Made by a program: the position numbers and the translations under genes. 18,181 bases of DNA, from IMG/VR virus record IMGVR_UViG_2869953405_000003; one strand, 5' to 3'. This stretch comes from a virus (taxonomy: Duplodnaviria; Heunggongvirae; Uroviricota; Caudoviricetes). Each line of letters starts with the position of its first letter. The stretch's first letter is position 1. The notes beneath the pieces were generated by a model. It saw nothing but the letters and a program-made list of their open reading frames with translations, did no database searches and was not told the origin of the DNA. Below are positions 4,630 through 17,157 of the stretch, piece by piece.

Positions 4630-5126
4630 TATTTACTCCTTGCCGGGTCATAAGCCTGCCAGGTGATCTCGCCGAGCACCGGAAGCTCGGTCTCCCCCAG
4701 GTCAATATCCGATGAAGGGACGATTAACCGGTGGGCCACTTCACCAGCAGACAAACTGATGGCCTCACTGATTCTGGACAGATACATACGCCCCTCTGGC
4801 ACACCATCCCGTAACATCAGTGCATTCAGCTCTGCTTTTATTGCAGTCCTGATCTGCGGTGTGTCTTTCGATAATGCAATCGTCATCGGGATGACTTTTT
4901 CTGTGGCACCGAATACATACAATCCGCTTCCGGCAACAGGTGCCAGAGGAAGGATGTGGTCCCTGACTGCGTTAATCACGCTTTCATCCGGGGCCGGGCG
5001 TTCCGGATCGTTTGTCGCCACCATCACGCCAACCGTTCCAGTGCCTTTCCAGTGTCTGAAAGTCCATGCACGGTTAATACCCTGAACTTCTTTCGCCCAG
5101 ATAACATAATCAGGGTCTGCGCCCCC
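4629..5126 (-). pseudogene. baseplate J-like protein (Mu gp47 family), C-terminal part, separated from its N-terminal part by IS1
   Basis: My translation from 5126 downward (GGA DPDYVIWAKEVQGINRAWTFRHWKGTGTVGVMVATNDPERP...) is in the same frame as the upstream fragment 5895..6488 once IS1 and one target-duplication copy are removed. Confidence 0.8.
5118..5126. repeat. 9-bp target-site duplication TGCGCCCCC, left copy, IS1 copy 1
   Basis: Identical 9-mer at 5118..5126 and 5895..5903 immediately flanking the IS1 ends. Confidence 0.9.
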
Positions 5127-5181
5127 GGTGATGCTGCCAACTTACTGATTTAGTGTATGATGGTGTTTTTGAGGTGCTCCA

Positions 5182-5457
5182 GTGGCTTCTGTTTCTATCA
5201 GCTGTCCCTCCTGTTCAGCTACTGACGGGGTGGTGCGTAACGGCAAAAGCACTGCCGGACATCAGCGCTATCTCTGCTCTCACTGCCGTAAAACATGGCA
5301 ACTGCAGTTCACTTACACCGCTTCTCAACCCGGTACGCACCAGAAAATCATTGATATGGCCATGAATGGCGTTGGATGCCGGGCAACTGCACGCATTATG
5401 GGCGTTGGCCTCAACACGATTTTACGTCACTTAAAAAACTCAGGCCGCAGTCGGTAA
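5182..5457 (+). CDS. insA: IS1 InsA
   Basis: 91-aa [46 protein letters not shown]..., the canonical IS1 InsA. Confidence 0.95.
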
Positions 5458-5879
5458 CCTCGCGCATACAGCCGGGCAGTGACGTCATCGTCTGCGCGGA
5501 AATGGACGAACAGTGGGGCTATGTCGGGGCTAAATCGCGCCAGCGCTGGCTGTTTTACGCGTATGACAGTCTCCGGAAGACGGTTGTTGCGCACGTATTC
5601 GGTGAACGCACTATGGCGACGCTGGGGCGTCTTATGAGCCTGCTGTCACCCTTTGACGTGGTGATATGGATGACGGATGGCTGGCCGCTGTATGAATCCC
5701 GCCTGAAGGGAAAGCTGCACGTAATCAGCAAGCGATATACGCAGCGAATTGAGCGGCATAACCTGAATCTGAGGCAGCACCTGGCACGGCTGGGACGGAA
5801 GTCGCTGTCGTTCTCAAAATCGGTGGAGCTGCATGACAAAGTCATCGGGCATTATCTGAACATAAAACACTATCAATAA
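5376..5879 (+). CDS. insB: IS1 InsB frame (expressed as the InsAB' transposase by -1 frameshift)
   Basis: 167-aa ORF in the -1 frame overlapping the insA 3' end. A6C slippery run at 5433..5438. Confidence 0.9.
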
Positions 5880-5894
5880 GTTGGAGTCATTACC

Positions 5895-6896: not shown

Positions 6897-7430
6897 TCAG
6901 CCCATCGGTTGATCCGGCGTGTCAGTGATCCCGCCACCATCACCATTTTCGGTATGTTTGTGGGCATTGTAGGCCTGCCGCATTTGCTGCATGCTGAGTC
7001 CGCCACTGTCGCAATTGTCAGTAATATCGGCGGTGGATTCGACTGGCATTTCAAAGCGCGCTTTAGGCGCGTTTTTAAAAATTATGGCCTTCCCGGCCCC
7101 GTCCACCACAATACCGGAACGGGTCAGGACAACGGACTGTCCCAGATCGTCATAAAGCGCCACTTCCCCACGTTTCAGTCCTTTCAGCCGGTAACGTCTG
7201 TCAGCCACGACCACAACCACACCATGAGAACGATCGCCCGCCGGAAATAAAGCAACGCCCTCAGCACCGTTCTGTGCGGCAGATGTAAAACCATAAGGTT
7301 CAAGGTGCTCAACGTGTTGTTTCTGATCTCCGGCTATCATTTTCAACCCTACAGACTGACACTTTCTGGCGGAATCCACCGCCGTGATGACAGCCCGGGA
7401 AATCAGATTACGAAGAGAAAACCCGTTCAT
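6897..7430 (-). CDS. baseplate assembly / spike protein (Mu gp45, P2 gpV-like)
   Basis: 177-aa ORF with a Gly-rich C-terminus, positioned after the hub gene as in Mu. Confidence 0.7.
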   Translation of the reverse strand: MNGFSLRNLISRAVITAVDSARKCQSVGLKMIAGDQKQHVEHLEPYGFTSAAQNGAEGVALFPAGDRSHGVVVVVADRRYRLKGLKRGEVALYDDLGQSVVLTRSGIVVDGAGKAIIFKNAPKARFEMPVESTADITDNCDSGGLSMQQMRQAYNAHKHTENGDGGGITDTPDQPMG

Positions 7431-8496
7431 CAGAAATCCTCCTCAACATTTTTTTCTTCCTGGCGGTAACAGGCTCGGGGAGATAAGCATCTGCCGGGCC
7501 AACCCGTAATTCAGTCGTCGTGCCCCGGTCGTCCTGGTTATAGGTAACTTCTGCGATCACCAGTTCATCATTATCAAAATTATTCAGCGGGTCGAAAACG
7601 ATGACAGATAACCCCGGACGCCATAACGCGCCACTGCCCTGCCGCCAGCCCTGAACCGTATATGTTGTCTCACGGGTAAGCGCAGCCCGTTGGCGCGCTT
7701 CAAATTCACAACGGGCCTTACAGGTTGCTGTCGTTGCTGTGCCTGACTGCTGAATCAACAAAGGGCGATAACGGGTCACGCCACTGTCCTGAATGGTCTG
7801 ACGTATTGCGGCAATGGTGGCCTCACCAAAATCATCGTCGTTGCCCGGGCGCTGCCCACTGACCTGATATTCAGAAAACCGCTCTCTGATGCTTCTTTCC
7901 GTGTCACAGGAAAGAATATTCTCTCCCAGCACCAGCACCAGCACCAGCGCCGTCGCCGCTTTACCTGTTCCGGGTTTTCCCAGAACCAGTCGCCCGCATT
8001 CATCGTCATAAGCCAGCGTCTGAACCTGCCCCAGTAACCGGTTAAGACAATCGGCAACGGTTTCGCCGTGTTCCGGCTGGGCATCAATCACCGCTGTCTG
8101 CGGCACGCCAGCATCAACAACGGTGATGCCAAATGGCGCAGCCAGTTCACTGACTATTCTGAGCAGGTTTTTTCCGCTCTGCTGGAGTGGCAAAGCAGAG
8201 CAGTCAACCAGATCGGCTGTTTTGCTTCGCCCGACAATTCCCATGCTGACGCTGCTGGCGTCATAACGAAGCGGTAGTGCCTCCACATATCCGGTGAGCA
8301 CAGGCTCATCCCCGATAAGCACTTCAACCAGCTCACCATTTTTTATCCGGGGTTGATAATCCCGGCTTCCGGGCCAGCGGGTGGTAATGGCAACATTAAA
8401 ATCCCGGGCAATACGGTTAATGCCCGCACTGATACGGACGGATGTCCAGCCGCCCCATTCGCGACCGGAAACCCGAAGTAAAACGGTATCATTCAT
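7408..8496 (-). CDS. baseplate hub / tail protein (Mu gp44, P2 gpD-like)
   Basis: 362-aa ORF. ATGA start/stop overlap with the N-like gene. Size and position match Mu gp44. Confidence 0.7.
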   Translation of the reverse strand: MNDTVLLRVSGREWGGWTSVRISAGINRIARDFNVAITTRWPGSRDYQPRIKNGELVEVLIGDEPVLTGYVEALPLRYDASSVSMGIVGRSKTADLVDCSALPLQQSGKNLLRIVSELAAPFGITVVDAGVPQTAVIDAQPEHGETVADCLNRLLGQVQTLAYDDECGRLVLGKPGTGKAATALVLVLVLGENILSCDTERSIRERFSEYQVSGQRPGNDDDFGEATIAAIRQTIQDSGVTRYRPLLIQQSGTATTATCKARCEFEARQRAALTRETTYTVQGWRQGSGALWRPGLSVIVFDPLNNFDNDELVIAEVTYNQDDRGTTTELRVGPADAYLPEPVTARKKKMLRRISDERVFSS

Positions 8497-10312: not shown

Positions 10313-10327
10313 GGTAATGACTCCAAC

Positions 10328-10831
10328 TTATTGATAGTGTTTTATGTTCAGATAATGCCCGATGACTTTGTCATGCAGCTCCACCGATTTTGAGAACGAC
10401 AGCGACTTCCGTCCCAGCCGTGCCAGGTGCTGCCTCAGATTCAGGTTATGCCGCTCAATTCGCTGCGTATATCGCTTGCTGATTACGTGCAGCTTTCCCT
10501 TCAGGCGGGATTCATACAGCGGCCAGCCATCCGTCATCCATATCACCACGTCAAAGGGTGACAGCAGGCTCATAAGACGCCCCAGCGTCGCCATAGTGCG
10601 TTCACCGAATACGTGCGCAACAACCGTCTTCCGGAGACTGTCATACGCGTAAAACAGCCAGCGCTGGCGCGATTTAGCCCCGACATAGCCCCACTGTTCG
10701 TCCATTTCCGCGCAGACGATGACGTCACTGCCCGGCTGTATGCGCGAGGTTACCGACTGCGGCCTGAGTTTTTTAAGTGACGTAAAATCGTGTTGAGGCC
10801 AACGCCCATAATGCGTGCAGTTGCCCGGCAT
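10328..10831 (-). CDS. insB: IS1 InsB frame
   Basis: 167-aa ORF identical to the copy 1 InsB translation. Confidence 0.9.
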
Positions 10832-11025
10832 CCAACGCCATTCATGGCCATATCAATGATTTTCTGGTGCGTACCGGGTTGAGAAGCGGTGTAAGTGAAC
10901 TGCAGTTGCCATGTTTTACGGCAGTGAGAGCAGAGATAGCGCTGATGTCCGGCAGTGCTTTTGCCGTTACGCACCACCCCGTCAGTAGCTGAACAGGAGG
11001 GACAGCTGATAGAAACAGAAGCCAC
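10750..11025 (-). CDS. insA: IS1 InsA
   Basis: 91-aa ORF identical to the copy 1 InsA translation. Confidence 0.95.
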
Positions 11026-11080
11026 TGGAGCACCTCAAAAACACCATCATACACTAAATCAGTAAGTTGGCAGCATCACC

Positions 11081-11089
11081 GTTTTAACG
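11081..11089. repeat. 9-bp target-site duplication GTTTTAACG, second copy, IS1 copy 2
   Basis: Identical to 10304..10312. Confidence 0.9.
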
Positions 11090-13627: not shown

Positions 13628-13983
13628 TACTGATACCCTCCCTCTTCGCCGTGGAATTCAAGATCTGCCGTGCCTTCTTCGGCATTATGATTAGCCTCTC
13701 CGTGCAGCCATGCCGCCGAAAGCACATACACCATGCCGTTTGCCAGCTCAGCGGTAATCGTCATCTGGTCTGAGGTGGTAATTTTGTCGACCGGAAAGTT
13801 TTTGGGCACTTTAAACGTGCCCTTAACGTAAGGTGACCGCCAGGTCTCCTTGTAATCCACATCCCCTGCCATGCCGACGATGTCATCCCGGACATTGGTG
13901 TTCATCGGCACTTCAATGCCACCTGTCAGCGATAACTGCTGACCATCCACTTTAAAAAAACAGGTTCCGGCGATCTTTGCCAT
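13627..13983 (-). CDS. tail tube protein (Mu M-like)
   Basis: 118-aa ORF immediately downstream of the sheath gene with a one-nucleotide overlap. Size matches contractile-tail tube proteins. Confidence 0.75.
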   Translation of the reverse strand: MAKIAGTCFFKVDGQQLSLTGGIEVPMNTNVRDDIVGMAGDVDYKETWRSPYVKGTFKVPKNFPVDKITTSDQMTITAELANGMVYVLSAAWLHGEANHNAEEGTADLEFHGEEGGYQ

Positions 13984-15479
13984 TATGCTGACTCCTCTGA
14001 ATACTGAAGACGGAACTGGTTAACCACCGCAAAGACACGTAACTGATTAACATAATCCGGCGGGAACAGCGTATTCAGTCGGTTCGGGTTATCTGCATCA
14101 CGCTCAACTATCAGATACTGTTTAAACAGATCGTAATTTTCCACAATACCGGCACGCTCCATCTGACGATATGTCGCCAGAAGTTCCCCTTTGATAACGG
14201 CAGGAGTGACAATCGCCTGCCCCGGACCAAAACGGGTACCATCATTTGCCAGCTTGTGACGTCCGTACTTGCTTGTGATGACCGATTTCAGTTTGCGAAG
14301 AACATATGCACTGGTATGCAGAGTTTCACTGTCCAGATAGCTGTTGTCTGCCACGCCATACGCATTCTTTTTGTAGGTGGTTACGGAACGCTGGATCTGC
14401 AACGTGCCGCCTTCCACATAAGCCGTCGCCACGCCGTGAGATAAAAGGGTCTGCTGCTCTGTCATGATGAATCGCTTACCTTTCGGTGCCGGAAGCATCC
14501 CCACCAGCTCCCCCGTCTGTGTCGGACGGGCAGGATCATTCCGGATAAATACCGCTTCACGGGCAAGGCGACTGGCAACCAGTTCATCGACAGGCGACTG
14601 GGTTTCTTTTTCGTAACCGGCAAGCGTGATATGTTGCTGATTATGCATATCTCCGGCACCAACCAGCTCTGACAGCGTTCCCAGTTTTGCGGTATAGCCA
14701 TGCCCGTATAACTGGCGCGCATAACTCCAGCGACCGCTGCTGTCATTCATTTCGGTCATCATCATATTGATGGAGGCGGCATCGTTGAACGGCAGACCGA
14801 TAAAGTCGAATGCCTCATCGCCCATAGCAGCAACAGCGGCGGTAAGATCAGGCGCTCCGCTACCGGCAGCACCGACTTCCGTCACCACCCGAAGCCCTGC
14901 TGGCAGAATCTCACCACCACCAGAACCATAATAATTCAGACAGACCGGTAACTCATTACCATACAGCCCCTTATGACGGGCAGTCAGCGTCACCACACCT
15001 GCATCAGATGACGCCGTAAACGGCAGGGTGATAACCCCGTTTACCGCTTCCTTAATCGCGGTGGCAACCGCAGTGGCATCATCGCCATTCACCACAGGCA
15101 CCTGTACACGGGAGCGCCCGACATACAGACTCAGGGTGCCGCTTTCCTCTGCTTCTCCGGCAACCGTCACCCTGACCGTCGCCGCCGCCCCTCTGGCTTC
15201 CGGTACTGCAATAACATACAGTTCACCGAAAGGATCTGTCTGACGGTAGACTTCCACCATACGCGCCAGCTGGCTCCCCGCCCCACAAATCTGGCGGGCA
15301 TAATCTGCCGATGGCATCAGCACCAGGCTGTTAACCTCAATGGCTGCATCGTTGCTGGCATGCCCGATCAGTAATGCAGGCGCGCTGGTCACCGCTGTAT
15401 TTGCCGCAGAATTGTTCATCTCGGCGTAGAACAACGGCACCAGCGTATTCGACGGAACAGTATTAAAACTTATCGTCAT
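13983..15479 (-). CDS. tail sheath protein (Mu L-like)
   Basis: 498-aa ORF, the largest structural gene before the tube gene. Size and position match Mu-type sheath proteins. The start ATG is 19 nt from the IS600-like element end. Confidence 0.8.
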   Translation of the reverse strand: MTISFNTVPSNTLVPLFYAEMNNSAANTAVTSAPALLIGHASNDAAIEVNSLVLMPSADYARQICGAGSQLARMVEVYRQTDPFGELYVIAVPEARGAAATVRVTVAGEAEESGTLSLYVGRSRVQVPVVNGDDATAVATAIKEAVNGVITLPFTASSDAGVVTLTARHKGLYGNELPVCLNYYGSGGGEILPAGLRVVTEVGAAGSGAPDLTAAVAAMGDEAFDFIGLPFNDAASINMMMTEMNDSSGRWSYARQLYGHGYTAKLGTLSELVGAGDMHNQQHITLAGYEKETQSPVDELVASRLAREAVFIRNDPARPTQTGELVGMLPAPKGKRFIMTEQQTLLSHGVATAYVEGGTLQIQRSVTTYKKNAYGVADNSYLDSETLHTSAYVLRKLKSVITSKYGRHKLANDGTRFGPGQAIVTPAVIKGELLATYRQMERAGIVENYDLFKQYLIVERDADNPNRLNTLFPPDYVNQLRVFAVVNQFRLQYSEESA

Positions 15480-15541
15480 GATTTTTTAGCCTTATCCTTG
15501 AGGTGTACTGGCAATAGCGGACACTACCATTTGTTCTTTTT

Positions 15542-16360
15542 TTAAGCAGCCATCTGATGATATTTTTCCCTGAAGGCTGCCGGGGAGATATTCCCCAGAC
15601 GAGAGTGACGACGCTGACGATTGTAGAAAATCTCAATGTATTCCCGTATTACTGAGATGGCTTCATCCCGGTTATTAAAACGATAGTGGCTCAGGCTCTC
15701 ATTTTTCAGCGTTCCCCAGAAGCTTTCCATCGGAGCGTTGTCGTAACAGTTACCTTTACGCGACATTGATGTTTTCAGACCAGACTGCTCCTGTATGACC
15801 CGGTAATCGTATGCGCAGTACTGTGAACCTCGATCAGAGTGGTGGATTAGCCCGGCAGGTGGGCGCTGGCTCCTGAGCGCCATAAACAGGGCTTTACCTG
15901 TCAGCTCTTTTGTCATGCGCTCTCCCATGGCGTAGCCGACAATTTCGCACGTATAAACATCTTTGATGCCAGCGAGGTACAACCATCCCTCCTGTGTGGC
16001 AACATACGTCAGGTCCGCCACCCAGACCTGATTTGGTGCTGTAGGAGCGAACGTCTGGTTCAGCAGATTTGGCGCAACTGGCAGATTGTGGTTCGAGTTC
16101 GTAGTCGCTCTGAACTTGCGTTTCTGCTTACAGCGTAGCCTTAGCTCCTTACGAAGACGTGCCAGTCGGTCACGACCAACGATGATGCCATTCTCTGCCA
16201 GCTCCGTCTGGTGCCGCCGGGTTCCATATGTTTCGCGAGTGCGGATATGTGCCACCTTAATCTCCAGTTTTAGCCGCTCATCACTTTGTTTTCTGTCTGA
16301 GGGTTCATGCTGTACCCAGTTGTAATAACCGCTCCTGGATACACCAAATACCTGACACAT
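15542..16360 (-). CDS. IS3-family transposase OrfB (DDE integrase domain)
   Basis: 272-aa ORF with the usual IS3-family OrfB layout, including ...HHSDRGSQY... and ...YDNAPMESFWGTLK... motifs. Confidence 0.9.
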   Translation of the reverse strand: MCQVFGVSRSGYYNWVQHEPSDRKQSDERLKLEIKVAHIRTRETYGTRRHQTELAENGIIVGRDRLARLRKELRLRCKQKRKFRATTNSNHNLPVAPNLLNQTFAPTAPNQVWVADLTYVATQEGWLYLAGIKDVYTCEIVGYAMGERMTKELTGKALFMALRSQRPPAGLIHHSDRGSQYCAYDYRVIQEQSGLKTSMSRKGNCYDNAPMESFWGTLKNESLSHYRFNNRDEAISVIREYIEIFYNRQRRHSRLGNISPAAFREKYHQMAA

Positions 16361-16409
16361 CGCTTCAATGGGAAATTGTTGTCGCCATTGTTCGATTAAC
16401 GCGTATTTT

Positions 16410-16697
16410 TCAGCGACTCCTGTGCAAAATACGCTGTTGCTTTTTTAATATATCTCGCTCAAGGCGAGCTTCATTTAACGCCTTACGCAGTTGCAGAATT
16501 TCAGATTCCAGTTCAGCCACCGTGCGGGAACCAGGAGTACCGAGCCCTTTTCTGGCGGCGGTAACCCATTGTCCTAAAGTGCCTTCAGGAAGAGATAATC
16601 GGGAAGCGCCTTCACTGATCGAAAGTTGATTTTCAAGAACCGTTCTGACAGCTTCGGCTTTGAACTCTTTAGAGTAACGTTGGGTTTTTCTGCTCAT
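16410..16697 (-). CDS. IS3-family transposase OrfA (helix-turn-helix / leucine zipper), C-terminus altered
   Basis: 95-aa ORF MSRKTQRYSKEFKAEAV... ending ILKKQQRILHRSR. The expected family C-terminus ATAYFAQESLKNTR is encoded in the -1 frame immediately after the A6G heptamer at 16446..16440. Confidence 0.85.
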   Translation of the reverse strand: MSRKTQRYSKEFKAEAVRTVLENQLSISEGASRLSLPEGTLGQWVTAARKGLGTPGSRTVAELESEILQLRKALNEARLERDILKKQQRILHRSR

Positions 16698-16758
16698 TAT
16701 TAGCTCCTTCTGATGCCATTCTATTTCAGGAAGGAGCGTCCGTTAAACTCAGGCTACC

Positions 16759-17157
16759 TCAGTCTTTCAGGACGTACCCAATAGAAAGGCCGGTTAACGA
16801 ACCGGCCTTCATGTGTGCATGTGCACGTTTTGCGAGGGGATCATCATCAATAAGCAACCGTCCCCTGACGTAAAGCCCGACATCGTCTTCCTTCATTTCG
16901 GTGTAAACACCGATGGGTTCATCCATGCGGTGCTGCCAGAGCAGCGCAGGTAACGCTTTTCTGTCACTCCACGCCCGCAGGGAAGCAGCAAATGCCCCGG
17001 ACATCACCACATCATCGTGGCTGTCCTTTACACCAAAGACGGAGCCATACCCTTCAAACTCACCGGAGTCACTGACAGATTTCAGACTCAGCGGTACATC
17101 AAGACGTTGTTTCGTCTGCATTGGCGTTATCCTTCTGCTTACCGGCCTTACTGCCAT
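16759..17157 (-). pseudogene. prohead maturation protease (HK97-type), C-terminally truncated by the IS600-like element
   Basis: 132-aa ORF with the motif layout EGYGSVFGVKDSHDDVVMSGAFAASL...LWQH...GLSIGY as I recall it for this protease family. Its stop codon TGA is the first three bases of the IS inverted repeat (16761..16759). Confidence 0.7.

Follow-up and report, generated by a model that had tools for sequence, protein, structure and literature searches.

Does the copy of IS600 in the window (the whole stretch of 18,181 nt that was analysed) truly lack a nucleotide at the site where the frames of its two transposase genes meet, or is the nucleotide missing only from the assembled sequence? 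A preliminary description, made from the window sequence alone, held that one base is absent at the frameshift window and that this copy probably cannot make its OrfAB transposase. The question turns on the following features.

15499..16761, minus strand: IS600 copy (IS3 family), 1263 bp, with the ends TGAGGTAG...CACCTCA
16697..16410, minus strand: orfA as read in the window (from the ORF list), 95 aa, ending ...ILKKQQRILHRSR
16446..16440, minus strand: slippery site, A6 (16446..16441) followed by G16440, read in phase as A_AAA_AAG
16440..16396, minus strand: tail in the -1 frame, encoding ATAYFAQESLKNTR with a stop at 16396, which is the normal OrfA C-terminus
16398..16438, minus strand: predicted stem-loop, starting just 3' of the motif, with the core GCGUAUUUU/AAAAUACGC (perfect 9 bp plus an extension)
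16360..15542, minus strand: orfB (from the ORF list), 272 aa from its ATG, with a DDE 'rve' integrase core

The product of orfA as read in the window has the final residues ...ERDILKKQQRILHRSR, and this exact 95-aa sequence has a precomputed Pfam match to PF01527 (HTH_Tnp_1). The early end of the frame and the presence of the normal OrfA C-terminus in the -1 frame, both described previously, are borne out by the ORF list and by a simulated slip. The 272-aa OrfB of orthologous copies in other strains has precomputed Pfam matches to PF13276, PF00665, PF13683 and PF13333. In the window the orfB frame has no stop between the A run and its ATG, and because the distance from the start of orfA to the start of orfB is 337 (3 x 112 + 1), it lies in +1 and not in -1 relative to orfA, as had also been observed. 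The RNA fold of the stem-loop has a predicted energy of -13.3 kcal/mol with z = -1.0 against shuffles (76-nt piece), which is not exceptional. The stem-loop presumably acts as a stimulator of frameshifting, and IS600 frameshifting is listed as stimulated by a stem-loop on the basis of unpublished data (cited in PMC4066793). A repeat search reported no terminal inverted repeats for this copy, as they are too imperfect; integrity of the ends was judged from end-to-end identity with other copies.

A megablast search of the element against complete E. coli genomes and against plasmids returned thousands of matches with 99.6–99.8% identity, with query positions 1–1263 aligned and the matched features annotated as "IS3-like element IS600 family transposase". 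The window element is alike end to end to IS600 (first described in Shigella sonnei; IS3 group), with the same orfA (HTH_Tnp_1), orfB (HTH_21 and rve) and predicted downstream hairpin, but it differs in having A6 and not A7, in having orfB in +1 and not in -1, and in being without a 3-bp target duplication. Nearly all full-length matches listed from the E. coli genomes and plasmids span 1264 bp. We aligned four copies, two of 1264 bp (from the E. coli EJN001 chromosome and from the S. sonnei Ss046 plasmid pSS_046) and two of 1263 bp, against which the window element shows one gap and 0–4 substitutions. The length difference sits in the A run, which reads TTAAAAAAAG (A7) in the 1264-bp copies and TTAAAAAAG in the window and the other 1263-bp copies. 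In the E. coli frameshift-motif catalogue IS600 constitutes cluster A_AAA_AAA_1; its motif is placed at codon 86, OrfA has 100 aa and the product of frameshifting 385 aa (PMC4066793 supplement), and the -1 frameshift is called proven (PMC4066793).

The comparison with other IS600 copies, which the preliminary description had proposed as a check, thus finds the sequences different at the site, and it confirms both the loss of one base and the sizes given there (1263 bp and 95 aa in the window against 1264 bp and 100 aa in the reference). The missing base had been given as either an A of the run or a G just 3' of it; the former is correct and the latter is ruled out, since the G and all downstream bases align unchanged. 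With one more A in the run the element is canonical again, and the window copy becomes identical, base for base, to the orthologous 1264-bp copy of Ss046. The heptamer A_AAA_AAG had been called intact, which it is not: the deletion lies inside the canonical A_AAA_AAA, and on the evidence of the alignment the in-phase A_AAA_AAG is a by-product of the deletion and not the original heptamer. The canonical arrangement (orfB in -1, A_AAA_AAA at codon 86, OrfA of 100 aa, OrfAB of 385 aa) is absent from the window and present at the orthologous copy in 17 other S. sonnei assemblies; its absence from the window is probably due to a sequencing error.

The compared copies also vary outside the run. Window position 16737 (element position 25, in the left end region) is G, as it is in the S. 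sonnei orthologous copies, and A in four other IS600 copies compared. At position 16212 the window has the OrfB codon CAC (His), in common with Ss046 and most S. sonnei orthologous copies, while other IS600 copies and four S. sonnei assemblies (L018, L022, L024 and L034) have CTC (Leu). This His/Leu polymorphism falls in the OrfB stretch ...YGTRR[L/H]QTELA and may reflect gene conversion between IS copies.

What would a run of A6 mean for the products of the element, if taken at face value? We simulated on the window sequence the translation products of slips at the A run. Continued reading in frame 0 gives the 95-aa OrfA variant, a -1 slip at A_AAA_AAG gives 100 aa identical to the wild-type OrfA of Ss046, a -2 slip gives 385 aa identical to the wild-type OrfAB of Ss046, and a +1 slip gives 384 aa. 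The earlier statement that a -1 slip stops after 14 codons is therefore right, its product being the exact wild-type 100-aa OrfA and not junk. These products agree with the predictions of one explanation that we regard as unlikely, namely that a real and recent A7-to-A6 replication slippage in the lineage of this strain disabled the copy. In that case frame 0 would yield the 95-aa OrfA with nine foreign C-terminal residues, an efficient -1 slip on A_AAA_AAG would yield wild-type OrfA, and OrfAB would arise only via rare -2 or +1 events or via one A inserted in transcription; the copy would be non-autonomous, though with intact ends, and might be moved in trans by transposase from the many other IS600 copies. 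It also speaks for a real deletion that A7 runs are known mutational hotspots, and that A7 is avoided in genes for that reason (PMC4066793).

Related elements show how far such a copy would depart from known designs. In the -1 frameshifting of IS911, IS3, IS150 and IS2 the same A heptanucleotide lies at the orfA/orfB overlap with a stem-loop 5–6 nt later, and frame 0 gives OrfA while the slip gives OrfAB, as in IS600 (PMC4066793); unlike in these IS911-type systems, a -1 slip in the window leads to the OrfA tail and not to orfB. The window copy resembles elements of the IS1447 type (+1 transcriptional slippage on an A9 run) in having orfB in +1 and an A run at the junction (PMC6211511). In IS1447, which is also a member of the IS3 family, no slippage product could be detected from an A6 mutant, and a run of A7 or longer was needed (PMC6211511); by this analogy, rescue of an A6 copy of IS600 by +1 transcriptional slippage would be unlikely. 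Unlike the run of IS1447, A6 in IS600 is not a conserved design; the consensus there is A7, from which A6 is a rare departure.

To which genome does this copy belong? IS600 with both flanks was sought in complete E. coli genomes, where no record covered >55% of the query. Exact-protein look-ups with the adjoining tail-sheath gene and with a gene of the baseplate region led to chromosomes of Shigella sonnei, in which the locus is a decayed Mu-like prophage between bamD/rluD and smpB; by these sequence comparisons the locus is S. sonnei-specific. In all S. sonnei loci fetched, IS600 is flanked by the same truncated S78 prohead-protease fragment and tail-sheath gene. In the window the truncated S78 prohead-protease gene lies at 16759..17157 and the tail-sheath gene at 13983..15479; the element links the two directly, and the head genes are missing. 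No 3-bp target duplication is present at the ends of the element (15496–15501 and 16759–16764), the flanks being ...AAAGAC and AGGATAAG.... The junctions common to all S. sonnei loci point to an old IS-associated deletion or to inter-copy recombination.

Other parts of the prophage have also changed. Two IS1 copies in inverted orientation (5126–5894 and 10313–11081) interrupt its tail/baseplate region, one of them in the Baseplate_J gene. The gpP-like baseplate gene (7408..8496, minus strand) contains a hexanucleotide repeat (GCTGGT)n at about 7943–7948, the copy number of which varies among S. sonnei strains, with products of 360, 362, 364 or 366 aa.

The orthologous chromosomal copy, with the same flanks, was compared in 19 other S. 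sonnei assemblies. Its run is A7 in 17 of them, including Ss046 (CP000038.1), A6 only in CP104423.1, and A9 in CP049167.1 (L032, 3426). The A6 call at the same locus in CP104423.1 is an argument for a real deletion, and against an artefact, as the allele could be real and common to a clade; the A7 calls in the 17 assemblies argue in the opposite direction. In RefSeq complete E. coli genomes A7 is overwhelmingly dominant, with rare deviations both ways: among about 1333 records with the full site, A6 is found as the best match in 6 and A8 in 3 (NZ_CP027351.1, NZ_CP058683.1 and NZ_OY754853.1). If real, A8 would join orfA and orfB in a single frame, with constitutive transposase as the result. 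Among plasmids A6 occurs in 28 of 262 records, mostly in a GenBank-only series of Shigella virulence plasmids (CP102xxx, CP104xxx and LR86xxxx), and A7 only is found in pCP301, the M90T plasmid and the pSS plasmid of Ss046.

The distribution of A6 within single strains and at single sites is uneven. On plasmid CP104425.1 (strain 1527837), which comes from the same project as CP104423.1 with an adjacent accession and probably from the same strain, three of the five IS600 copies are A6 and two are A7. At one plasmid copy, the flanks of which are identical throughout, the call is A6 in CP104430.1 and A7 in both Ss046 pSS_046 and CP104425.1. Such scattered, non-clonal A6 calls across copies and strains fit stochastic under-calling of A7 better than inheritance, and they count against a real deletion. 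On the other side, the exact 95-aa OrfA is encoded on 184 contigs (the 100-aa form on at least 1000), and because many of these contigs are short, as in short-read assemblies, real A6 alleles probably exist somewhere in nature; this favours a real deletion over an artefact in the window as well. Independent support for real A6 was sought in the hsdR::IS600 copy of E. coli O145:H28, the A6 form of which was found only in the sister strains RM12581 and RM13514.

Is the A run the only place where the window departs from its relatives? An alignment of the entire window (18,181 nt) with nine S. sonnei genomes showed 0 private substitutions. It did show five private 1-nt deletions, each of them in a homopolymer that is at least 4 long in the other genomes. 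Four of the five are unique to the window, and that in the A7 run occurs in one other assembly.

18172: deletion, C4 elsewhere, in the frame of an IS4-family transposase (442–448 aa elsewhere)
16447: deletion, A7 elsewhere, in the IS600 slippery site, shared only with CP104423.1
1378: deletion, G5 elsewhere, in a tail-fibre gene (422 aa elsewhere, a 379-aa ORF in the window)
988: deletion, C4 elsewhere, in a DUF4376 gene (205–207 aa elsewhere, a 93-aa ORF in the window)
833: deletion, C4 elsewhere, in the same DUF4376 gene as the deletion at 988

Each of the five falls in a frame that other S. sonnei assemblies keep open. Runs of at least 3 hold 17% of the bases of the window, and the chance that five of five deletions would fall in runs is about 1.6e-4. 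Other assemblies compared (L027, L028 and CP104423.1) have private homopolymer indels of their own. Homopolymer-only deletions without substitutions among near-identical strains point to sequencing error and not to evolution; for a real deletion at the A run, the four other private deletions with no private substitution would make an implausible mutational spectrum. The claim that this copy cannot make OrfAB presumes that the base is truly absent, and it becomes doubtful in view of these four deletions and of the A7 at the orthologous copies.

We therefore think it quite probable that the A missing from the IS600 run is an assembly artefact, a homopolymer under-call, and that the element is a standard IS600 fixed at one site in the decayed Mu-like prophage of S. 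sonnei. The A6 of the window is most likely an uncorrected under-call in a long-read-based assembly; short-read polishing would be expected to perform poorly inside multi-copy IS elements. The defects of the window have the features of nanopore-type long-read errors, i.e. the same 1-nt deletions confined to homopolymers, no substitutions, broken frames, and the sites intact in near-identical strains. They differ from the pattern of pure long-read error in that A6 is also found in one other assembly, and the sequencing platform of the window, and with it the presence of the base in the real DNA, is something that we infer. The true element almost certainly carries the canonical A7 run. Ribosomes translating orfA would then reach A_AAA_AAA followed by the stem-loop, where most of them would continue to give the 100-aa OrfA and a fraction would slip by -1 to give the 385-aa OrfAB transposase.

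Could A6 copies be functional as they stand, with OrfAB made by a programmed -2 or +1 shift? We consider this very improbable. A -2 slip on A_AAA_AAG would, according to our simulation, give the exact wild-type OrfAB, and database records appear to agree: the A6 copy of E. coli RM12581 (L002, 365–1520) bears the RefSeq note "programmed frameshift" assigned by PGAP, and a transposase of the normal length of 385 aa is recorded for the A6 copy in CP104423.1 (L015, 2283–3438), the 1156-nt span of which implies a -2 join. But the label is automatic, and 385 aa is recorded for the A9 copy in CP049167.1 too (L032, 3185–4343, implying a +1 join), so that these entries are no evidence of function. The rarity of A6 among the E. 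coli records speaks against a programmed shift, as does the want of any covarying change, the element being otherwise identical to the A7 copy; by analogy, so would the silent A6 mutant of IS1447.

A different idea, also improbable in our opinion although less so than a programmed -2 or +1 shift, is that the A run of IS600 is a hypermutable tract that toggles single copies. A7 would then be the frameshift-controlled state, A6 and A9 would be "off" and A8 constitutive, and the copy in the window would be a real "off" allele, perhaps leaky via a -2 slip on A_AAA_AAG. If true, this would add copy-by-copy reversible control to the expansion of IS600 in Shigella.

All Shigella species show an expansion of five insertion sequences, IS600 among them, and recent activity has been greatest in S. 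sonnei (PMC7373316). If the deletion in the window were real, it would mean that one of the many IS600 copies of S. sonnei is defective, an ordinary case of IS decay with no wider consequence, and such a single copy would not affect IS600 activity in the genome. The under-call that we favour has its meaning elsewhere. Long-read assemblies are prone to miscall sites such as the A7 slippery run of IS600, and within repeats polishing often leaves the errors in place. Automatic annotation assigns "programmed frameshift" to A6 and 385 aa to A6 and A9 alike, so that those who use the databases can neither see the frame defect nor tell real defects from artefactual ones. The practical value of this case is a warning on homopolymer miscalls at IS frameshift sites, which would bias any survey that sorts IS copies in Shigella into active and defective ones.
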